IMG/VR virus record: IMGVR_UViG_2974603165_000001
Coordinates: 2,589-66,588 of that record
DNA length: 64,000 nucleotides
Origin: a virus
Taxonomy: Duplodnaviria > Heunggongvirae > Uroviricota > Caudoviricetes
Strand: one strand, 5' to 3'
Positions 39,507 to 62,067 of the stretch are shown here, piece by piece. The translations under genes and the position numbers were made by a program. Numbering within the stretch: the stretch's first letter is position 1; the number at the start of each line of letters is the position of its first letter. The notes under the pieces were generated by a model that saw only the letters and a list, made by a program, of their open reading frames with translations, did no database searches and was not told the DNA's origin.

Positions 39507-39980
39507 TCAATGCAGTAGCATCGGAATAAACCGGGCTAAGACTAAGGCGCTGATGATGACACAGGTTTTTAGCCACTCTTTGATTGTTGAATCTTTGAAC
39601 GAGGCACACAGGATCACCATCTCCATCATTGTTGGATAAGATGATTCGACCACGAAACCAAAGATGTCTGGCAGTACATTTGGATACTGCAACGCAAGCA
39701 TTTGCGAGAACAGCACAGGAACCGAGACAGCCAGCGTAAGTTTCTTTCTCCAGCCTTGCAGCACACAAGCAGAAGAGAACAATAACCCTATGTCAAGGAA
39801 CCAGCAGCCCGTGAGGTAAAGGTTCCAGTCGAAATACTGGATGTGTTCTGAGAACCACCAATAGAGTCCATTTTCCGAAAGAATATGAATCATGCCGAAG
39901 ACCGACATGATCCGTATTCCCTTGTCTGTGTGAAACAGCAAGACTACAAAGCACACGAAGTACAATGCAGACGCTATCAC
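39507..39980 (-). CDS. multi-pass membrane protein
   Basis: about five hydrophobic segments. Confidence 0.7.
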   Translation of the reverse strand: MIASALYFVCFVVLLFHTDKGIRIMSVFGMIHILSENGLYWWFSEHIQYFDWNLYLTGCWFLDIGLLFSSACVLQGWRKKLTLAVSVPVLFSQMLALQYPNVLPDIFGFVVESSYPTMMEMVILCASFKDSTIKEWLKTCVIISALVLARFIPMLLH

Positions 39981-40291
39981 CGGACTTGTTTCTCCATGAG
40001 CATCTGGAATTGGCGACTGAGGTCTTGTCGAAGATCCCCAACGTCGTCCTTGATGTCCTTACGAAGATCTGAAACGTCATCACGCACGGTTTTCAGTTTC
40101 TTATCCAGGATGTCATCCAGTTTTTCCTTTGTCACCATCTCTGCTTTAATCCTGATGATGTCTTTGTCAAGCTCGTCAAGCCTCCCTTGCGTCTTCTTGT
40201 AGTCTGAATAGACAACTCTCAACACCCCTACGAGTGCAAAAGAGATGACTGCCCAAACCGCCTTGAGGACGGCAAACAGATCGATGGACAT
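39977..40291 (-). CDS. membrane-anchored coiled-coil protein (holin/anti-holin-like)
   Basis: one TM plus coiled coil. Confidence 0.6.
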   Translation of the reverse strand: MSIDLFAVLKAVWAVISFALVGVLRVVYSDYKKTQGRLDELDKDIIRIKAEMVTKEKLDDILDKKLKTVRDDVSDLRKDIKDDVGDLRQDLSRQFQMLMEKQVR

Positions 40292-40856: not shown

Positions 40857-41798
40857 TTATCTGGCGAGGGCAGTTGTGTAGGCAGCGGTCTGCCAGTTTC
40901 CATCAATGAGATACTGGAGAGGTCGGCTGTAGTAAGAACCATCATCCGCACCAAAGTCTCCACCGCCCGTAAGAACGTGTCCGTTTTCAAACTCAGCGGT
41001 CGGGCCACCTTGTCGTCTAAACACAGCCGCGCCGAAACGAATACCCATAATCCCTTGTGCTGGGAAGGTGATCGTGATGTTACCGTTCGCATCTGCGTTG
41101 TTGCCATTTACAGAACGGGCTACATGTTTCCCCGCTACAGTCGCACTGTTGTTGTTGACAACAAGGTTTGCAGTGGTTGTAGACCCTGCTACGGTTGCAT
41201 TACCTGTTGACTCAAGAGAGCCTCCACGCACAGTAGCTTGTGTCACAAGGGAACCGTTACCTGTGATAGTCAACCTTCCTGTCTCTGTCGTGCCATCAGC
41301 ATTTACGTTTCGGAAGACAAAGCCCCCGGCACCGCCGCCTTGGTTGTTGACAAAGAATGAAGCACCAGATCCGTTCGTTTCATTCCAACGAAGAATCAAC
41401 CCTTGTGTTGTCAGAGAGGTATTTGCTGATCCTGCGACCTTCAAACCACCAGACAGCGCACCACCCGTCAGTTGCAGGTAGCGGTCATCTGTCTCTGCTT
41501 TGGAGTAAACACCGAGGTTTTGGCGTGAAGCCGGAAGATCCATAAGATCAGACAGGCTTTGATTGCGTTGCAAGTACAGATTGCTCAGACCAGGTAGCTG
41601 TTCTTCCTGCATGTATTTCAGCCAAGAAGACAACATGAACCAGACGTAGTTCCATCCCTGTGCATCAGGTTTCTCGCCCATATCATAACCCTTATCCCAC
41701 AGGTCGCTGATCGGACGAATTTTATTTTTAGTCAAGGCATTAGGGAGGTCATAATCCTGTTCTGCCCACACTTCGATTTCGATATCCGGTTGTGCCAT
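40857..41798 (-). CDS. short tail fibre
   Basis: W.KGY..GEKP.AQ..N baseplate-anchor N-terminus; RSVNG..AD..GNI; RPLQYLIDGNW tip. Confidence 0.8.
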   Translation of the reverse strand: MAQPDIEIEVWAEQDYDLPNALTKNKIRPISDLWDKGYDMGEKPDAQGWNYVWFMLSSWLKYMQEEQLPGLSNLYLQRNQSLSDLMDLPASRQNLGVYSKAETDDRYLQLTGGALSGGLKVAGSANTSLTTQGLILRWNETNGSGASFFVNNQGGGAGGFVFRNVNADGTTETGRLTITGNGSLVTQATVRGGSLESTGNATVAGSTTTANLVVNNNSATVAGKHVARSVNGNNADANGNITITFPAQGIMGIRFGAAVFRRQGGPTAEFENGHVLTGGGDFGADDGSYYSRPLQYLIDGNWQTAAYTTALAR

Positions 41799-41808
41799 AA
41801 TGCCCTCG

Positions 41809-42162
41809 TTATACTGTTGTTAATACCGCGTCGCTGATGCTGATTACCGGAATTGGGCCTGCATCGGTTGTGTAGATCGTACACACCGCTCTGAGACGGG
41901 CGATTTTTGTGATGAGTTTTCGATATTTTGATGGGTTGGAGAGGTCGAGGAAGAACGTGATTGGAGGCGTTCCTTTCGGCTTTGTATACACATCAATAGG
42001 AATTTGTACCTGGACGGTACTGGCAGTCATGACGATTCGACCAGACTTTGCTACGTAATCGACTCCAGCTTTGGCTGTCCCATCCGTAGTCTTGTAATCC
42101 AGTGAACTCTCTTCTGCGAAGTTGTCCCTTGTGAGGGTAAAGATAGCTGTTACCGTAGCCAT
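41809..42162 (-). CDS. stand-alone Calx-beta domain protein
   Basis: DYKTTDGTAKAGVDY.AKSG, TFFLDLSNP; C-terminal ISISDAVLT strand. Confidence 0.75.
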   Translation of the reverse strand: MATVTAIFTLTRDNFAEESSLDYKTTDGTAKAGVDYVAKSGRIVMTASTVQVQIPIDVYTKPKGTPPITFFLDLSNPSKYRKLITKIARLRAVCTIYTTDAGPIPVISISDAVLTTV

Positions 42163-42172
42163 TGGTATCTCC

Positions 42173-42201
42173 AAAAAAGAGGGCGGTTACCCGCCCCTCT
42201 T
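42173..42201 (-). terminator. intrinsic terminator after GH48 gene
   Basis: GC stem (AGAGGG(G)CGG..CCGCCCTCT) + T run on minus strand. Confidence 0.65.
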
Positions 42202-42203
42202 GA

Positions 42204-44624
42204 TTATAGCTCGTCGTTGAAGTAACGGTGGAGAGCAGCAAGGCTGATTGCAAACTCGGACTGCGCCCAGAAACGGTGGTATCTGAACACTGGCGGAGTC
42301 GTGCTCGCCCCTGTCGCATATGCTGCCACTTCTGCCCATTTCGGGTCGTTATGCAAGAAGGTACGAAGCTCATGGAACTTAACACCACTCTTGATCTGCT
42401 CACCGTTAGGCATTGTACCAGTGAAGATCTCTGGAACGTAAACCTCATCAAAGAGGCGTTTGTAGCCTGGCTGAGGAGAGTCAATCGCCAGACCAACGTC
42501 ATCCACGTACAGGTTCCACATACGATCCAGCAGTTCTTTAGCGAACAGCATAGCTGTTTCTGCTGTGTGGTTTGTGCTCTTGATCTTGCTGGTGTACTTG
42601 CCAAGATTCTTTTTCGCTTTCGCGTAAGTGATCAGTAAGTATGCCAGGGATGAAGCAACACCCAGGTCAGTTGCATACTCAACAATAGAGCAATGCAGGT
42701 TCGGGTTAGGAACCGTTGACGCGTTCCAGAAGGATGCTTGGTTACCTGTCCCGTCCCAGTTCAGAGATGGCAGATATTCGTACACACCTTCATGGTTAGG
42801 CGTTGTAGCCGTCTGACCAACAACCTGCGTTGGAGAAACCCAAGACAGTGTACCAGGAAGCTGGAATGAACCGTCTGAGGTCAACGTAGAGTTGTTCAGG
42901 AACCACACCACTAATGGGTCAAGGATGATCTCCAAGTTGGCTTTCAGCGTCACAGCCAGTGGAGTCGTCTTGTCCGAAACCTCAAGGAACAGATCCGCAG
43001 TACGGCCCTGACCCCAAGTCTGGAAACCAACCCAGTCGTTAGACGGTGGATCGTGCCAAACCGGTGCGTAGGTATAAACCATTCCGTAGAACTTGGCGTT
43101 CTGACGACCATCGGTAGGTGTCTCGTAACGTGCGTTCCAGGAGTTAGTCACACCACCCGCTAATGGGCCTTCTGGTGATTGTAGCCAACGAAGCATTTCC
43201 ATCTGACGGTAGACAGAGCCTAACCAAATGTCAGAAGCACTTGGAGAGAGTGAAGTGAATCCACCACCACCAGTAGCCATGAAGTAAGCTGAGTCAATCG
43301 CTTGGTAGCCTTGGTGACACTCGGAAGAACCGATGCGGTAAGACCAAGAACCTGTAGCACCGGAAGCCGGAATCTCACCGCCCCATGCTGCGTACCAGTT
43401 TACCAGATAATGGCAACTTTCGTAACCCTTTCCACCAACTTGATTGTCTCCAATCTTGCGGAAATACTTATCAAACAGGTTGTAACGCATGTAGTCGCCC
43501 ATTTTCTTCGCTTTCGTAGTTGAAGCGGAGATGGTGGTTGACGCGCCCTGTTCGGTTGCAAACTTCTGCGCCCAGAATGACCACTGGATCGCACGGCCTT
43601 CTGCATCGGGAGCGTTAGTGTATGACCACTTCTTGCCCCAGTCGTTAGCTGCCGCTGGATACCACTGTGTACCTTGGGTGAATAATGGGTCATATCCGTA
43701 GATTGAACCACCGTTCGCAAAGTCGTTCCACGCCGGGTGAGTTACCGTCTCGAAAGAAGATTCCTGCATACCGCGTTCGTAGGTGTTGATGAAGACGTTT
43801 TGCTTCGTACCATCGCCGTTACGGAAGTTATACAGACCTTCAACATCCAGAATCCAGTGCATCAGATACATACGCTTGTTTCCATAAGTGGACTCAAGCT
43901 CATCTGCCAATGGATCGGCACCTTTCGCTGCTGTTGGGTCACCAAGTGTTGGGTAAACGCTTGGGGTATCCCCTTCCGGTGTATAGTCCGCTGGTGAAGA
44001 CGGTGTATACACAGCGATAGGCTGGTTAGTCGGAGAAGGTACATAGAACTGATCGATACGGTTCCATGCGTTGTTGTAGCCTGTCCAGTCCGCTGTTCCT
44101 AACTGACCAGTGACATATCCGTTCCATGCTTCCAGACCAACCCAGAAAGAAGCGGTTTCTGATACGGTTTCACCACCGTGGTCAGGCGCTTCGTTAATGA
44201 TGATGCTGTCTACACCCGGAATGTGTCGTGGCAGTGTACGTGCGTTTGCACCTGTCTGCGGCCCGAAGTATTTGTTATCTACGTTGTGGACTTTATCATA
44301 GATCGTTTTGAAACGTTCCAGATAGTTGATCGCCACCGGGGTGTCTGAACCAGGGATGGTTGCAGTACCGGATGAAGTCCCTAAGACCCCGTTAACCGGG
44401 GACGAAAGGACAACGTAGAAGTTGGTCTCTGTTTCTGCCGGAGCATCATCGTTGACCAAGACAATAATGTCTTTGGAGGTCTCACCTACCGCAAACGTTA
44501 CTGTCCCCGATTTAGCTGTGTAGTTATCAGGTGCTACCGCAGATCCGTCTTGAGTAGCATAGTTAACCGTGACCAGCGAATCGCTGGCCTGGTTAAGGGT
44601 TGTCTTGAATGTAGCCTGTCTCAT
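42204..44624 (-). CDS. Calx-beta + glycoside hydrolase family 48 (processive exocellulase)
   Basis: EAPDHG.ETVSE, MHWILDV, INTYERG.QES..ETV.HP, YTNAPDAEGRAIQ, HYL..WY.AWGG, H.GYQ, GG.TNSW, YHRFWAQ. Confidence 0.93.
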   Translation of the reverse strand: MRQATFKTTLNQASDSLVTVNYATQDGSAVAPDNYTAKSGTVTFAVGETSKDIIVLVNDDAPAETETNFYVVLSSPVNGVLGTSSGTATIPGSDTPVAINYLERFKTIYDKVHNVDNKYFGPQTGANARTLPRHIPGVDSIIINEAPDHGGETVSETASFWVGLEAWNGYVTGQLGTADWTGYNNAWNRIDQFYVPSPTNQPIAVYTPSSPADYTPEGDTPSVYPTLGDPTAAKGADPLADELESTYGNKRMYLMHWILDVEGLYNFRNGDGTKQNVFINTYERGMQESSFETVTHPAWNDFANGGSIYGYDPLFTQGTQWYPAAANDWGKKWSYTNAPDAEGRAIQWSFWAQKFATEQGASTTISASTTKAKKMGDYMRYNLFDKYFRKIGDNQVGGKGYESCHYLVNWYAAWGGEIPASGATGSWSYRIGSSECHQGYQAIDSAYFMATGGGGFTSLSPSASDIWLGSVYRQMEMLRWLQSPEGPLAGGVTNSWNARYETPTDGRQNAKFYGMVYTYAPVWHDPPSNDWVGFQTWGQGRTADLFLEVSDKTTPLAVTLKANLEIILDPLVVWFLNNSTLTSDGSFQLPGTLSWVSPTQVVGQTATTPNHEGVYEYLPSLNWDGTGNQASFWNASTVPNPNLHCSIVEYATDLGVASSLAYLLITYAKAKKNLGKYTSKIKSTNHTAETAMLFAKELLDRMWNLYVDDVGLAIDSPQPGYKRLFDEVYVPEIFTGTMPNGEQIKSGVKFHELRTFLHNDPKWAEVAAYATGASTTPPVFRYHRFWAQSEFAISLAALHRYFNDEL

Positions 44625-44635
44625 TGTTACTCCTC

Positions 44636-46825
44636 TCAGTCGGACAATGCCGGGGCGAGTAGATTCAGCTTAACAGTTTGAGGGGTTGTCCAGTTATCCT
44701 GAACCAGACCGCCTGTGTCTCCACTGTTAGGGTTGTAACACCAGTAGCTGTAAGAAATTCCTTTCTTCCCTGCTGCCAGGTCACGAACACCGTCGCCGTT
44801 AAAGTCGCCGTTCCAATAAGTGATCAGATTACTGAGCCATTGCTTCTCGTAAGTCGCATGAGGTTTGGTCAGGTTTCCAGATCCGTCAACACCGAAGTGT
44901 CCACCGAACTCTCCTACCCAAACTGGCGCAATATTCTGTGTGAAGATGTAGCCCCACATTGGTTCCCAAACACCGTACAGGTTAGAAGGCCAGTTCGCCG
45001 GAGGGGTCTGGTTATCATAAGCCAGCCAAGACTGACTTCCAACGCTTTGTCCATATTCGTGAGGGCTGTAAGCCACACGGTTAGGCTGCGTCAGAGTAAC
45101 CGGACGTGATGCAACACCTTGAAGTTGACCGCCCCACCAGTAGCTGACGTTGTTGTACTGACCGACACCTTCAACGAAGATGATCCAATCGGTAGTCACT
45201 GCGTGGATTGCGTTACCTGCTTGTTCAGCATAGCTCGCCCACGTTGACCAATCCAGATCGTGCGGTTCGTTATGAACGTCTGCCCCGATAACGTTGATTG
45301 CTGACTTGTAGCGTGTCGCAAGTTTCGTCCAAGAGGAAATCCACTGACTCAATGTGTAGCTTCCGTCAACCGGAGAGCCATCTGCCCCATCTCCCGCTGT
45401 ACGACGGTGGTGATCAAGGATAACATAAATCTCTTTCGTGTTGCAATAGTCGATGATGAGATCCAAGATCTCCAACGCCGTCTTGCCTACAAACTCAGAG
45501 TTTACTTCCCAATCGACTGCCGCTGTTGGTGGGTAAGGGTTGTTCTGCACCACCTCACCAGATAATGGGATACGGATCGTGTTGAATCCGAATGTCTTAA
45601 TCTGATCGATGATGTCTTTCCAGTAACGAGCACCGAGCCATGTTCCGTGAGGAGTATAGTTCGTACCTTCCATACCAAACCAGTTTACAGATTTGATGCG
45701 GAAATTCTCAGAAGTCTGGGTTGTTACAAACTGGTTTCCAGATGTCACCAGGCGCTGTAGTCCAACAACTGGGGCTGCTTCACCTACACCAGAAAGCGCA
45801 ACAGTCAATGAAGCTGCATGTCCGATTGTAGTGATCGCCAGGTTGCCAGAGACAATACCTACCGATTGTGGATTGAACACGATTGCCACGTCCGCAGTTT
45901 TGCGTGGGGCGATCACTGTTCCCGTTTGAGCGCTTCCAGAGGCAAGACTGTAGCCTGTAGGCAGCGTCAGTGTACCAATGGTCACATTCACATCTGTGTC
46001 GTTACTGATGGTCACAAGTTTACTCGCTGTTGGTGTTCCAACAATCGAAGAACCAAATGCCATAGTTAACGGAGAGATTGTTACACTATCAGCGGATTCT
46101 GTCAATACAGCATCAGAGATAGAGATGATAATGCCAACCGGAGGAATTTCAGAAGCATCGACGGTGATATCCTCGACAGAGACAGTCATGATGTAGCCTG
46201 TGTTCTCTTCATCGGAGGTGTAAACCAGTCGGGAGATCCCGCCTTGAGTGGTCTTTGTTTTATCAGCATTAACAGAGGAGAACCCAAAGGTGTCATCGTC
46301 TCCATTAAAACCGAATGCCCTTCCGTATGACTCAATCAAACGTAAGTGCGTTGGAAGAGGAAGCATGTCCTTGATTTCTTCAAGCAGGTCTTCCAGCTTG
46401 AAACAGGTTGACATTACATGGATGTCAACACGGTAATTCTCACCCTTCCAGGTGGTAAAGTTTTGGTCACCAAAGAGTTGACGGAGAGTCTGGATCACTT
46501 CCGGGCGTGTACCGTGCTTTGATGCACTCGCCAAAAGGATAGTGATCTGAGCACGATAGCTGTCATCGCCCATTCCGTTTCTGTCAACACCAAGTTGTCT
46601 ACCGATCTCATCCAGGTTCATGTACGTGGCGTTTGCCAGTAAACGACCCTCAGACAGCTTGACTAACATCTCATCAATCGCTTTAAGGCGATTCAGATAC
46701 ACACTTAGAAAAGTGGTGAGATTTTCCTTATCACGAAGGAAATCTCCAGGTAGGTAGTCAAGACCGTCTTGGACAAAATCTGGCAGCACATGAATGTGGT
46801 TGACATCCTGTAATGTATCTGCCAT
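44636..46825 (-). CDS. baseplate wedge-type subunit fused to Ig-like domain and GH5 endoglucanase
   Basis: N-term LD.IG..LG..R....D..YR..I (DUF2612-like); C-term VNWFGME..PHG, GFNTIRIP, LDHH, NEPH, YSPHEYG, GEFGG, YWCYNPNSGDTGG. Confidence 0.93.
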   Translation of the reverse strand: MADTLQDVNHIHVLPDFVQDGLDYLPGDFLRDKENLTTFLSVYLNRLKAIDEMLVKLSEGRLLANATYMNLDEIGRQLGVDRNGMGDDSYRAQITILLASASKHGTRPEVIQTLRQLFGDQNFTTWKGENYRVDIHVMSTCFKLEDLLEEIKDMLPLPTHLRLIESYGRAFGFNGDDDTFGFSSVNADKTKTTQGGISRLVYTSDEENTGYIMTVSVEDITVDASEIPPVGIIISISDAVLTESADSVTISPLTMAFGSSIVGTPTASKLVTISNDTDVNVTIGTLTLPTGYSLASGSAQTGTVIAPRKTADVAIVFNPQSVGIVSGNLAITTIGHAASLTVALSGVGEAAPVVGLQRLVTSGNQFVTTQTSENFRIKSVNWFGMEGTNYTPHGTWLGARYWKDIIDQIKTFGFNTIRIPLSGEVVQNNPYPPTAAVDWEVNSEFVGKTALEILDLIIDYCNTKEIYVILDHHRRTAGDGADGSPVDGSYTLSQWISSWTKLATRYKSAINVIGADVHNEPHDLDWSTWASYAEQAGNAIHAVTTDWIIFVEGVGQYNNVSYWWGGQLQGVASRPVTLTQPNRVAYSPHEYGQSVGSQSWLAYDNQTPPANWPSNLYGVWEPMWGYIFTQNIAPVWVGEFGGHFGVDGSGNLTKPHATYEKQWLSNLITYWNGDFNGDGVRDLAAGKKGISYSYWCYNPNSGDTGGLVQDNWTTPQTVKLNLLAPALSD

Positions 46826-46835
46826 GCTATCCCCA

Positions 46836-48335
46836 TTAAGTAATCTGTTGGAACAGGATGTTTGTCGTGTCGAGAGCAAACACTTCACGCATTCCCAATG
46901 TAACGTCCGCAGTGGTGTACGCAGTCGTTGGTTCAGAAGCCTTCTTCACTTGAGCCACAAGCTGTGTGAAGCGCCCTGCTGCCAACGATCCGGCTACAGC
47001 AGCGATCAACTGGATGTTGTACAGAGTATCAGCAATGCTGAGTCCGTCTGTCATCGTCTTAATCGCTGAACGAATTGAATCCTGTTCGGTGGATGAAAGC
47101 GTCTTACCCTGGTATTTGATCAGGATGTTGTAGTTAGTCGCTGCCGCTTTACTGTGGTAAATACGCTCAACACCATCATCTTCTGTGGTGATATCATAGA
47201 ACGTGTTTCCGTAAGTGGCGTTTGACAACGCAATCGTGTTGTAAAGTGCTTTGCTGATCTCCTCGGTCACACCGCCGTAAACAACTGTCTCGAACTTGTA
47301 TTTCGGGACGCCGTATTGGTCACGTTGGTCGGTGTTGTTCGCGAAAATCTTAACCTTCTGGACACCATCCACATTCAGCAGTGCCGAGATAACCGCAGGT
47401 CTTGTGGCTTTGGATGCCTCTGAGGTGATGGAGGATGCACGAAGTTTGTATTCGTTATCCGTCTCAACATCTGTACCAGATGCAAAGGACTCTGAGTTGT
47501 TCAGAGACAGGAAGCCGCTTGGTGTAGGGGAGATCTGTGTAACTGTGTTCTCTTCACGAGACAGTACGCCAGCCTCTACCGCAACAACCTCAAAGGATAA
47601 CGTCCTTGTTCCCACAATAGGTGAGGATCGGAAGTCGATACGACTGTTCAGACCAACAAACTCCTTAGCGGAGTTGTAACCAATGTACAGTGCTCCAGCG
47701 GCGGAGTCAATGTAAATCAGGTCAGAGTTTAAGTCTGTTGTGTTCGTAACGATAAAGTCTTTGATTGAGGACAGGAACGTGTTAAGTTCTGCTGAACCGG
47801 GTGTTTTGTTACGCAGTGTCAGAGACAAGCTCTTCATTGCATTGTCTGCTGAACTCAGGATCTGGAAGGTGTATTTACCCAGAACCAAATCGGAGTTGAG
47901 GATCTGCTGTGCAACAACGGAGCCTGCTACGGTTGCGTTACCAGTCAGTACGAATGTTCCGTTGTCAACGGTGAAGGAATCTGGTGTGTAGATAAGGTTG
48001 TATGGAACAGTGGTGTTCACTGTCATCTCAATCGTACCTGTGCTCTTGGTCTTACCGCGACGATAAATACCACGACGGCCCAGAAGCTCGTCAAGGTAGA
48101 TACCTTCGGCACCCGCCAGAGTCCCAGAGGTGAAGATCGCTGCTCCAAGCAGGATCAGTTGATATTCACGTTCATTCAGGATCGTTGTCAGCTTGTCGAT
48201 CACAGAGTTTGACTGGGTGTTGAAGGTTTCCCCGAAAGCGGCGATCAACATTGTCTTCGTGTCGGAGATCAGTGTATCAAGTGCGGGAACCTTGAAGCCG
48301 TAGTCGTTCAAACCATAGGTGTTTTGATCGGCCAC
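46836..48335 (-). CDS. baseplate J-like wedge protein
   Basis: G..LD....GI.R, G.DVETD.EY..R, AL..VDGV..V..F.N motifs. Confidence 0.9.
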   Translation of the reverse strand: MADQNTYGLNDYGFKVPALDTLISDTKTMLIAAFGETFNTQSNSVIDKLTTILNEREYQLILLGAAIFTSGTLAGAEGIYLDELLGRRGIYRRGKTKSTGTIEMTVNTTVPYNLIYTPDSFTVDNGTFVLTGNATVAGSVVAQQILNSDLVLGKYTFQILSSADNAMKSLSLTLRNKTPGSAELNTFLSSIKDFIVTNTTDLNSDLIYIDSAAGALYIGYNSAKEFVGLNSRIDFRSSPIVGTRTLSFEVVAVEAGVLSREENTVTQISPTPSGFLSLNNSESFASGTDVETDNEYKLRASSITSEASKATRPAVISALLNVDGVQKVKIFANNTDQRDQYGVPKYKFETVVYGGVTEEISKALYNTIALSNATYGNTFYDITTEDDGVERIYHSKAAATNYNILIKYQGKTLSSTEQDSIRSAIKTMTDGLSIADTLYNIQLIAAVAGSLAAGRFTQLVAQVKKASEPTTAYTTADVTLGMREVFALDTTNILFQQIT

Positions 48336-59487: not shown

Positions 59488-62067
59488 TTAGGTGATCGTC
59501 ACCGCTACAGCATTCGTGGTCGCCTGGTTCGTAGTGACAGTGGAATCTGCCGCTCCAAGTTGACCCTTGATGATTGCACGGTATTGACCTGCGTCTCCAG
59601 CCACAACAGACGCCTTGGTGTAGGTAGCAGCAGTTGCTCCGCTGATATCCGTCCAAGTGCTTCCTGAATCGGTAGACTTCTGCCACTGGTAACGCGCTGC
59701 ATCGTTCGCTGCGGTTGTCAGTGTTAGAGTTCCTCCGGTTGCCACTGTTTGAGCAGTCGGCTGTGTTGTAATCACAGGGGTGTAGGCGTAGTATGGCATT
59801 GCATACTCAATCCCGTTGATGTTCACACGCAGCCACTGACGCGGTTTTGATGTGTCCACCGGAACTGTGCCGGAAGCCTGTGAGCGACTTTGGATGGCAG
59901 CGACATCGCCCTTAGCTCCAAATCCAGCCTCTCCAGTATGGAACGCAAAGCGTCCAGGGATCTGGTTAAGACCTGGGTTTGCTGCCTGAGAAACACCGGA
60001 AGGTGTAAACGCAGCAGGGATGCCAGCTTCTTTCCTTGTCAGGCCAGTTCCTTCAACGAAGATGGTGAACTCACCACAACGCGCTCGGATAGGAATCCAA
60101 ACTGCCGGGATGATGTCATTCGAAGATTGAGTCTGGTATTGCGGGTAGATTGTTGAAGTCACCGCAGCCAGAGGCCCAGCACCCTCAGTGTACCAAGACA
60201 CTTTCGGTACGTTACCTGTTCCTCGTCCGATATTGATGACTGCCTCACCTTGGAGGTTGTCTGTCAACATGGTTTGTGTTGAACTGGTATTGTAGAAAGA
60301 ACCACCTAAGATTCTGACTCGCCACAAACCACCGTTCGTAGGGTTACGGAAGGAACCGACGTTTACCCACAAAATGTTGTCTGTGTTGTTGGTGCCACGC
60401 AGATACCCACGTCCCCATTGATAAACAACCGGGCAATCGAAGTATGCACCGTAGCTCATCATCAGCCAGTAACCTTGGTCGTAACCGCCAGTCCAAGCTG
60501 TGATGTCAGATCCGTCTGGGTTCTTAGGATAACTTGCCCATGTCCCGCTGGTCGGTGAACTTCTGTCGAAGTCATTTCCTGTTGGAACTGAAAGGGTGAT
60601 ACAAGTTGTCTTAGAATACCACATGTGCGGGTTCTTGCGACAGTCTTCGATGCAGATCATGCCCATATCCCATTGACCGTTGTTGATGTCAAAAGGAACG
60701 GTTCCGTGTTCGAACCAGCAGTTGTTCATGATCGCCTGAGCACAACGTGGTGCCCAAATTGCCGGAGCAACCATTGTTGAGAAGTTACAGTTTCTGATCT
60801 CAAGAGATGTCGAGTGATCCCAAACACCTGTTGTCTGTCCTGACCATCCTACCTGGATAACCGGGCCAGCAGTAATAGAACTGAAAATCTGTTCAACTTT
60901 GGAGTCCAACGTATCCAGCAGGTAGAAGGTGTACGACCCTGTGTTCACTGCGTTGATGCAGGAGATTCGAGCGTAACATCCACCAGGACATTCGTTTTTA
61001 AGGAATGGCTGTTTGTTGGAGGCTGTATCGTTGAAGATACCTTGTGTTGCACCTACCAGCAGGTTAGTGCCTGTAGGGTTTGACGTTGCGTTGTACTGAT
61101 CCACTTTTGTGGTTTGCTGACCATCCCAGATGAAGTTATGGAAAGAAACACGACGGTGGTTGATCAGGAAAACAGGCGCGTCTGATTTGTCAGAGATGAT
61201 TCGTGTTGCGATCATCTTGCCTGATTGTACAGCAACACCTTCGATGCGTAAAGAGGATGCGGCTGCGTAGCCTGATGGGTTGAATGCAAGGTCTGCTGAG
61301 TTGCTTGCCAGCTTCACACCGAACTTGTTATACTCACCAGGAGAGATGAAATAGGTTCCTGCACCAAAGCGTAGTGTCAGTGCCGGGGAATATCCACCTG
61401 CACCAGCGGAAGTCCCGCCTGTCTTAGCTCTTGCGTAGGCACCGAAGAGGAAGTTGATGTAGGCTTGGAACGCAGGCTGTGCGTCGGTAACACCGTCAGC
61501 AAGTCCACCGAAGTCACCAATGTAGAGGTCTTCGATGCTCTTGTCTCTTTGCCAGTGCCAACTACCACCCGCAGAAGCTACATATCCGCCATCATCTGCT
61601 TGTTTTGTTTTTCTGCCGATGAACCAGCCACCACCTTCCGGTAGGTAGATCGCCAGGGCCGCAGCAGTGTGACATTTGATGTACACACGCTCACCCTCAT
61701 AGGCGGGTTCTCGACTGCGAAGTGCTGCAAAGTTTGCCAGTCCGTCGATATCTGTCTTGACTACACCACCCAAGTTTGAAAGGGCCGTGCCTTTGTCAGT
61801 CAGATCGGATAGATTGTCTGCCTTCTTGGAGTACGGTGTCAAGTCAACATTCGACCCACCGCCTGTGGAGGATAGTGTTCCGTCTTCTGTGACAGAAAGA
61901 CCAGACCCTACCTTCACGCCACCAAGTGTGGTTTCAGTTGCAACCGGGAGATCTCCAGTTCCACCACCTGCACCATCTGCAAGCTGGGAGACTTCAATCA
62001 CGACCTTAGTCTTCAAATCGACCAACTTTGTTGCATAAACCACTCCACCAGAACCTGTAGTTGCCAT
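59488..62067 (-). CDS. WceF/AmsF-like tailspike-fold (beta-helix) polysaccharide enzyme with C-terminal Ig domain
   Basis: FAALR..P..EGER..GGG.F..DDGG..W.R then DFG..ADG.TDA.PAF (beta-helix cap), GAGTY; C-term PVIT.QP..YQWQK..DAGQYR I-set Ig. Confidence 0.7.
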   Translation of the reverse strand: MATTGSGGVVYATKLVDLKTKVVIEVSQLADGAGGGTGDLPVATETTLGGVKVGSGLSVTEDGTLSSTGGGSNVDLTPYSKKADNLSDLTDKGTALSNLGGVVKTDIDGLANFAALRSREPAYEGERVYIKCHTAAALAIYLPEGGGWFIGRKTKQADDGGYVASAGGSWHWQRDKSIEDLYIGDFGGLADGVTDAQPAFQAYINFLFGAYARAKTGGTSAGAGGYSPALTLRFGAGTYFISPGEYNKFGVKLASNSADLAFNPSGYAAASSLRIEGVAVQSGKMIATRIISDKSDAPVFLINHRRVSFHNFIWDGQQTTKVDQYNATSNPTGTNLLVGATQGIFNDTASNKQPFLKNECPGGCYARISCINAVNTGSYTFYLLDTLDSKVEQIFSSITAGPVIQVGWSGQTTGVWDHSTSLEIRNCNFSTMVAPAIWAPRCAQAIMNNCWFEHGTVPFDINNGQWDMGMICIEDCRKNPHMWYSKTTCITLSVPTGNDFDRSSPTSGTWASYPKNPDGSDITAWTGGYDQGYWLMMSYGAYFDCPVVYQWGRGYLRGTNNTDNILWVNVGSFRNPTNGGLWRVRILGGSFYNTSSTQTMLTDNLQGEAVINIGRGTGNVPKVSWYTEGAGPLAAVTSTIYPQYQTQSSNDIIPAVWIPIRARCGEFTIFVEGTGLTRKEAGIPAAFTPSGVSQAANPGLNQIPGRFAFHTGEAGFGAKGDVAAIQSRSQASGTVPVDTSKPRQWLRVNINGIEYAMPYYAYTPVITTQPTAQTVATGGTLTLTTAANDAARYQWQKSTDSGSTWTDISGATAATYTKASVVAGDAGQYRAIIKGQLGAADSTVTTNQATTNAVAVTIT

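Follow-up and report, generated by a model that had tools for sequence, protein, structure and literature searches.

A 64-kb stretch of a tailed virus genome (IMG/VR virus record IMGVR_UViG_2974603165_000001, positions 2,589 to 66,588), here called the window, contains three neighboring genes that appear to form a cellulase module within the baseplate and tail fiber region. The complete virus record has 147,321 bp, and all positions below are counted from the first nucleotide of the window. According to the open reading frame (ORF) list, every gene of the cellulase region is located on the minus strand (Table 1). The first gene encodes a baseplate wedge 1 protein fused in-frame to a glycoside hydrolase family 5 (GH5) endoglucanase, the second a Calx-beta domain followed by a GH48 domain, and the third a Calx-beta domain only, 117 amino acids (aa) in length. 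This three-gene layout with its coordinates had been proposed from the nucleotide sequence alone (the original prediction), and it is borne out by the ORFs as well as by Pfam and Protein Data Bank (PDB) matches far beyond chance. The tight spacing of the two enzyme genes noted at that time is also seen in the sequence: the TGA of the GH5 gene is followed by GAGGAGTAACA and then by the ATG of the GH48 gene, the gap being 11 nt with the GAGGAG ribosome-binding site included. The 117-aa gene has a ribosome-binding site of its own, GGAG. As had been stated, the module lies between Baseplate_J and the tail fibers, wedge 2 upstream being recognized by Pfam and by its similarity to phiTE Wedge 2, and a short tail fiber homolog and a fiber being found downstream. 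Direct reading also agreed with the earlier remark on signal peptides, as neither of the enzymes has an N-terminal hydrophobic signal sequence.

The N-terminus of the fusion protein covers residues 6-209 of the 214 residues of phiTE Wedge 1 (PDB 9mjn_dh, E 2.8e-66) and matches in addition phi92 gp146 (E 6e-17; both phmmer). Full-length homology to a solved wedge subunit, together with the location between wedge 2 and the short tail fiber, places the protein among the wedge 1 subunits. Similarly to phiTE (PDB 9CUY/9MJN), wedge 1 is accompanied here by a neighboring wedge 2 and by a short tail fiber with a related N-terminus, but the phiTE wedge 1 consists of 214 aa and carries no GH5. Indeed, in the relatives wedge 1 stops at approximately 214 aa and the fiber gene comes next. 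The protein search revealed only three clusters with the wedge 1–GH5 fusion, namely this genome, Erwinia amylovora phage Hena1 and one 145-kb ENA contig, and among the 504 phage records with wedge 1 homologs GH5 was found alongside only in Hena1. The ATG at position 46825 is also the start used by Hena1 gp204, and both proteins are 729 aa long. No description of a wedge 1–GH5 baseplate fusion was found in the literature searched, two relevant papers being outside that scope. Covalent fusion of GH5 to wedge 1 on a contractile-tail baseplate appears to be new here and, judging from the genomes compared, confined to Henunavirus-like phages.

The wedge domain is connected to the enzyme through a linker and an immunoglobulin (Ig)-like domain. 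The latter was modeled by AlphaFold2 (AF2) with a predicted local distance difference test score (pLDDT) of 97-98, and Foldseek matched it to the PapD-like domains of HYDIN and CEP192 and to the Ig domain of VesB. The GH5 profile PF00150 scores 155.8 bits against a cut-off of 23.5, and the nearest solved relatives are CelE2 (8fc0, E 1e-84) and Acidothermus E1 (1ece, E 1e-72). Both catalytic glutamates, the acid/base Glu520 (HNEPH, NEP) and the nucleophile Glu639 (VGEFGG, GEFG), are kept and align with the E1 motifs, and the domain is a predicted GH5_1 endo-beta-1,4-glucanase with intact catalytic residues. In the phiTE baseplate there is a single wedge 1 per wedge, six per virion, and the short tail fiber docks on wedge 1 (PMC11972413). 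The first 72 residues of the short tail fiber homolog match that portion of the phiTE fiber which makes this contact. The in-frame fusion and the phiTE copy number taken together suggest that six endoglucanases are covalently attached along the rim of the baseplate, beside the short fibers. Because GH5 is fused to an essential wedge protein, its presence on the virion is close to certain, barring cleavage from the fusion.

Table 1. Features of the cellulase region and the adjacent genes (positions in the window)
Feature	Position	Strand	Basis
Baseplate wedge 2 (gp6/Baseplate_J-like) gene, upstream context	46836..48335	-	Pfam Baseplate_J; phiTE Wedge 2 PDB 9cuy_T, E 3.5e-155
Fusion gene, 729 aa: wedge 1, linker with proposed donor strand, Ig-like domain and GH5 endoglucanase	44636..46825	-	
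Wedge 1 (gp7-like) baseplate domain, residues 1-213	46187..46825	-	phmmer; phrog_4056 baseplate protein
Linker with IIISISDAVLTES, Calx-beta strand-A-like motif, proposed donor strand	46094..46132	-	motif scan
PapD/ASH-like Ig domain, residues 248-349	45779..46084	-	Pfam TMEM131_like_N/Cep192_D4/ASH; AF2; Foldseek
GH5 catalytic domain (subfamily of Acidothermus E1), residues 378-701	44723..45694	-	Pfam E 2e-45
Calx-beta-GH48 gene, 806 aa	42204..44624	-	Pfam
Calx-beta core of the GH48 protein, residues 1-92, begins at strand B	44349-44624	-	
GH48 domain, residues 101-806 of the Calx-beta-GH48 protein			Pfam E 7e-195
Terminator-like GC hairpin with U-run, between the GH48 and 117-aa genes	42180..42197	-	
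Calx-beta-only gene, 117 aa; core without strand A	41809..42162	-	Pfam Calx-beta
C-terminal VISISDAVLTTV tail of the 117-aa Calx-beta-only protein	41812-41850	-	
Short tail fiber homolog, downstream context	40857..41798	-	phrog_4465; phiTE short tail fiber residues 1-72, E 2e-12

The GH48 domain of the second protein is intact (PF02011, 649.6 bits), and 14 solved GH48 chains match residues 100-802 with E-values down to 6e-147. The acid Glu156 (SETASF) and the base Asp340 (NAPDAE) align with Glu87 and Asp255 of CelS, and both columns are invariant in 39 phage GH48 homologs. The family comprises processive cellobiohydrolases, and this activity is predicted for the domain; no phage GH48 has been assayed so far (PMC9544554). 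Apart from Calx-beta, Pfam recognized no tail-anchor domain in the GH48 protein. The Calx-beta profile PF03160 (cut-off 27) scores 55.2 bits (E 9e-15) in this protein and 35.8 bits (E 9e-09) in the 117-aa protein, and the AF2 model of the latter matches CALX CBD1 with a template modeling (TM) score of 0.66-0.72.

Compared with Hena1, the ratio of non-synonymous to synonymous substitution rates (dN/dS) is 0.07-0.08 for all three genes at a dS of 0.9-1.7, and the wedge 2 gene is alike. Such low ratios indicate that the three genes are kept by selection, including the 117-aa gene (dN/dS 0.08, dS 1.7), which on this ground is rejected as a pseudogene remnant. The small gene could nevertheless have been taken for the decaying 5' end of a displaced second GH48 gene, as the closest similarity of its core (43-45%) is to GH48 N-termini from another sublineage (P0007/P0011). 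We regard this as extremely improbable, given the substitution pattern, the length maintained at 117 aa, the ribosome-binding site of its own, the conservation of its C-terminal motif (see below) in three clusters and the analogous small genes present in unrelated lineages.

An endoglucanase combined with a processive GH48 exocellulase represents the classic cellulase pair. The phage enzymes belong to the same catalytic families as Acidothermus E1/CelE2 and Clostridium CelS/Cel48F, with both catalytic residues kept in each. The bacterial enzymes differ in being secreted and in having carbohydrate-binding modules (CBMs) or dockerins, whereas the phage GH48s have Calx-beta in place of CBM2. From what is known of the two families, endo/exo synergy between GH5 and GH48 is plausible.

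The nearest named relative of the virus is the above-mentioned phage Hena1 (Henunavirus, Vequintavirinae; NC_048828), with 81% nucleotide identity over the region, on the basis of which the host is most likely Erwinia. Hena1 has the same three genes in the same position (gp204, gp203 and gp202, with 85%, 90% and 84% amino acid identity, respectively), and the 81% identity at the DNA level indicates a separate strain. In the Hena1 record these genes are labeled just baseplate protein, glycoside hydrolase and hypothetical protein, and no paper discussing them was found in the literature searched.

The GH5–GH48 pair as such has a better known counterpart in vB_EamP-S6 (S6; Schitoviridae, Waedenswilvirus). 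In S6, gp095 (GH5) is followed by gp094 (Calx-beta and GH48) in the same order and with a gap of approximately 10 nt. The GH48 protein is 64% identical to gp094 from residue 2 to the end, Calx-beta included, and the GH5 domain approximately 65% identical to that of gp095. An Ig-like domain and a strand-A-like motif are found upstream of GH5 in S6 as well, and its host also belongs to the genus Erwinia. There are, however, clear differences. S6 is an N4-like podovirus, in which the anchor of gp095 is unlike the wedge and has two Ig-like domains, and it lacks a Calx-beta-only gene; gp093, considered as the counterpart of the 117-aa gene, was rejected since it is unrelated. As summarized in a commentary, infection by S6 needs host bcs cellulose and gp095 degrades carboxymethylcellulose (PMC9544554, citing Knecht et al., 2022); the cellulose dependence is repeated in PMC13101476. 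Thus for S6 both cellulose dependence and GH5 activity were shown experimentally, and for the phage studied here they are predicted. The original prediction had mentioned a cellulose-dependent Erwinia podophage S6, and the literature agrees with it (PMC9544554, PMC13101476). It had also stated that a baseplate-integrated GH5 and GH48 pair was not known to be described, and had named an existing description of the cassette as evidence against novelty. The first part holds for the wedge fusion in the literature searched, but the same GH5/GH48 cassette is laid out, with the architectures of gp095 and gp094, in the commentary on S6 (PMC9544554), and the pair is widespread in phages, so that a description of the cassette largely exists.

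The arrangement by which an S6-type cassette is recognized, a GH5 tail gene followed by a Calx-beta-GH48 gene, is present in the window and shared with S6 and Fifi067. In tblastn searches the pair was found in all Erwinia N4-like phages of the collection (S6, Pastis, Fifi011/051/067/287/450, Kuerle and phiEaP8), and GH5 without GH48 in PEp14-like podophages of Erwinia, Klebsiella and Serratia. In a set of 5.8 billion proteins, approximately 90 clusters display the Calx-beta-GH48 layout of about 800 aa, many of them on phage-sized contigs of 60-77 kb and some in bacterial genomes; the cassette was seen in Azotobacter, Novosphingobium and Rhodoblastus genomes. The GH5 gene is located just before the GH48 gene in all IMG/VR loci inspected (13/13), either directly or across one gene with a Calx N-terminus. 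A metagenomic protein of 1326 aa (P0058) is a natural single chain of GH5, an Ig-like domain and GH48 without Calx-beta, providing a Rosetta-stone link between the enzymes.

A P2-like prophage of Azotobacter beijerinckii (L011:7620-16237) has the gene order V, W, J, I, GH5, a 198-aa gene, Calx-beta-GH48 and tail fiber H. The cassette occupies there the homologous spot of a contractile-tail baseplate, between the gpI/wedge 1 equivalent and the fiber. It differs in that GH5 is a separate, unfused gene after gpI, and in that the element is temperate and of the Peduoviridae type. In the phylogenetic tree the phage GH48s form one clade, separate from the actinobacterial CBM2-GH48 enzymes, and the Henunavirus GH48s nest within a radiation otherwise found mostly on podophage-sized contigs. 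This nesting, from which alone the direction is read, points to acquisition of the cassette by the myovirus lineage. The best explanation for the module seems to be that a Henunavirus-like (Vequintavirinae) myophage has taken up an S6-type cellulase cassette into its baseplate.

By analogy to S6, it is likely that the virion-borne module binds and cuts host bcs cellulose and that the baseplate reaches the cell surface by this means. The six GH5 units at the baseplate rim would bind and cut the polymer, which would let the baseplate and the short fibers reach the outer membrane; alternatively, cellulose would serve as the first receptor. The earlier suggestion that cellulose is a matrix barrier or a receptor gains support from the 64-65% identity to the cassette of the cellulose-dependent S6 and, for GH5, from the wedge fusion. 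Plating on bcsG mutants, put forward at the same time as a check, is not applicable in E. amylovora, as the species is without bcsEFG (PMC9544554). The enzymes might instead be aimed at plant cell-wall cellulose or other beta-glucans, for example in movement through plant tissue. GH5_1 and GH48 are indeed classic plant-biomass families, the closest solved relatives come from cellulolytic bacteria, and the host is probably a plant pathogen. However, the homologous cassette of S6 needs the host bcs operon, as judged by genetics, and the cassette is also found in phages and prophages that are not plant-associated and in the Azotobacter, Novosphingobium and Rhodoblastus genomes. In addition, six enzymes tethered to a baseplate would be ill-suited to bulk digestion of plant walls. 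A plant target is considered very unlikely.

If host cellulose is the target, the phage cellulase strategy against the cellulose coat extends from podoviruses to a contractile-tail baseplate, where the endoglucanase is part of an essential wedge subunit. Also, cellulose dependence would be predicted for Henunavirus, and hence cross-resistance with S6 through bcs loss, which matters for the design of phage cocktails in fire-blight biocontrol.

The location of GH48 is less direct than that of GH5. It has to be asked whether only GH5 is in the virion, GH48 and the 117-aa protein being soluble and released at lysis, so that the matrix of cellulose would be loosened for the escape of progeny or the next infection, with Calx-beta serving calcium or carbohydrate binding. 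The GH48 protein has no tail-anchor domain apart from Calx-beta and its gene is followed by a terminator-like hairpin, both of which speak for a soluble enzyme. Nevertheless, in every lineage the GH48 gene resides within tail or baseplate modules right after the GH5 tail protein, and the same N-terminal domain heads annotated tail proteins of PEp14-like phages. Furthermore, it is hard to see why the Calx-beta of a soluble enzyme should lack strand A throughout the homologs while a free strand-A motif is conserved in the neighboring protein. This scenario is regarded as unlikely, and we infer from the genes that GH48 is located on the virion.

The strand A pattern is as follows. Neither the GH48 protein nor the 117-aa protein contains the complete seven-strand Calx-beta sandwich, strand A being missing in both. 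The profile matches begin at positions 35 and 25 of 119, respectively, and the BLAST alignment to complete bacterial Calx-beta domains begins after the 'PSISIADTTVAEGNSGTS' segment, approximately 17 residues (strand A and the A-B loop) being missing. All of the approximately 85 phage Calx-GH48 homologs (~85/~85) start at strand B. According to the motif scan, the window of 64 kb contains the strand ISISDAVLT exactly twice, in the fusion protein linker and at the C-terminus of the 117-aa protein. The tail of the 117-aa protein aligns in BLAST with strand A of the next domain in tandem bacterial Calx-beta arrays. The two copies share all residues (9/9), whereas their serine codons are TCT in one and AGC in the other, and there are further synonymous differences. 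These codon differences suggest that what selection maintains is the peptide rather than the DNA, and on their account a recent DNA duplication or recombination scar was rejected as the origin of the two copies.

The motif is also conserved outside the window. Its consensus, PTISISDAVIE, is kept in 32 GH5 tail proteins approximately 145 residues upstream of GH5 and on quite different anchors, sometimes in two or three tandem copies, and has survived although the Ig domains of these proteins share only about 30% identity. S6 and Fifi067 both carry it, and it is missing from the cellulase of PEp14, a phage that lacks GH48. In the AF2 models the linker motif is a coil with a pLDDT of 58-71 next to the Ig domain with a pLDDT of 97, and the tail of the 117-aa protein has a pLDDT of 44-53 on a well-folded Calx-beta core. 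Neither copy is confidently used in cis, and folding of the 117-aa tail onto its own core by circular permutation is unsupported by the model, the tail scoring as low as just given. Small Calx-only proteins of 114 and 112 aa with a strand-A-like end (…VVSINNVSV…) are encoded just before Calx-GH48 on two distant viral contigs (L024:9995-10339 and L017:9995-10333). In two loci the ratio of donors to acceptors is 2:2, tandem motifs being followed by two acceptor-type genes. The natural single-chain fusion of GH5 and GH48, in which Calx-beta is lacking, was also counted in favor of docking.

It is proposed here that GH48 plugs onto the fusion protein, its strand-A-less Calx-beta receiving ISISDAVLT in trans. 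The strand would be supplied either by the wedge–GH5 linker or by the C-terminal tail of the 117-aa protein. Equipped with a socket as well as a plug, the 117-aa protein would function as an adaptor or extender. For docking of GH48 through a donated strand A, the arguments from the sequences leave us about evenly divided.

Several observations weigh against the proposed module and its mode of assembly. One locus (L018) has two donors and three acceptors, and several short contigs have two to three donors and one acceptor; a strict 1:1 donor-to-acceptor rule is rejected by these unequal counts. The tail protein of PEp14-like phages has a strand-A-less Calx-beta N-terminus, yet no donor motif was found in 17 kb. 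Owing to the conserved hairpin located between the GH48 and 117-aa genes, the three genes are perhaps not one tight translational unit. Finally, some animal GH48s have been reported as chitinases, for which reason the substrate of the phage GH48 is deduced from the S6 context.

The unequal counts and the PEp14-like acceptor-type domain without a detectable donor would be readily understood if ISISDAVLT were a mere inter-domain linker, or a recombination junction from tandem Calx-beta arrays, with no role in docking. The Calx-beta cores would then be stable without strand A, in line with the AF2 monomer model of the 117-aa protein, where the core folds without the tail, and GH48 would be attached, if at all, in some other way. 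This explanation is a tentative one and somewhat doubtful, since selection on the peptide is evident from the identical residues with differing synonymous sites (TCT and AGC), and since the motif persists although the Ig domains have diverged to about 30% identity. Moreover, the occurrence of the motif follows that of a GH48 partner, and small socket-plus-plug proteins have emerged in three or more lineages.

Donated-strand docking might also apply beyond this phage. A split Calx-beta could be a general, portable plug-and-socket of phages, in which a strand-A peptide on a tail or baseplate anchor completes the N-terminus of the cargo, be it GH48, fibers or other enzymes, and in which small socket-plus-plug proteins such as the 117-aa protein extend or branch the chain. 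This generalization falls somewhat short of an even chance. Chaperone-usher pili offer a comparison in the manner of working only, as there an edge-strand-less Ig-like sandwich is completed from another polypeptide, and a subunit with socket and plug could chain likewise. In contrast to the pili, the missing strand is the N-terminal strand A of Calx-beta, and no chaperone is evident; no homology is claimed. If true, the split Calx-beta would constitute a small, naturally occurring tag-and-catcher pair with which enzymes are attached to virions. It would moreover account mechanistically for the ready transfer of the cassette between unrelated tail types, since a move among N4-like, SU10/PEp14-like, P2-like and rV5-like virions would have required no more than a plug on another anchor.

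In three loci (L016, L018 and L022) genes lying between those for GH5 and GH48, or following them, encode proteins of 650-1050 aa that share the strand-A-less Calx-beta N-terminus and have a body other than GH48. The C-termini of these proteins are similar to each other (…YDYTAAQKG…). These proteins may be further cargo of the docking system.

The hairpin 3' of the GH48 stop codon has a GC-rich stem followed by UUUUUU, with a dG of -19 kcal/mol and a z-score of -3.1. It is 92% conserved in Hena1, compared with 81% for the whole region, and may either act as a partial terminator and set the ratio of expression or mark the 3' border of the imported cassette. In its wider extent the window represents an ordinary late operon of the rV5 type, including sheath, tape measure and hub. 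The short tail fiber homolog is followed on its 3' side by a tail fiber assembly protein and then by a fiber of 1122 aa (Pfam, phrog). Two small conserved genes, phrog_5345 and phrog_7451, are located between the fiber assembly and long fiber genes at 39977-40291 and 39507-39980 (minus strand). In addition, the head/neck cluster contains a protein of 859 aa (59488-62067, minus strand) that matches phage exopolysaccharide (EPS) depolymerases (phrog_4250, E 2e-171) and has a C-terminal Hoc-like Ig domain; owing to this match the phage seems to be equipped to attack another exopolysaccharide of its host in addition to cellulose.

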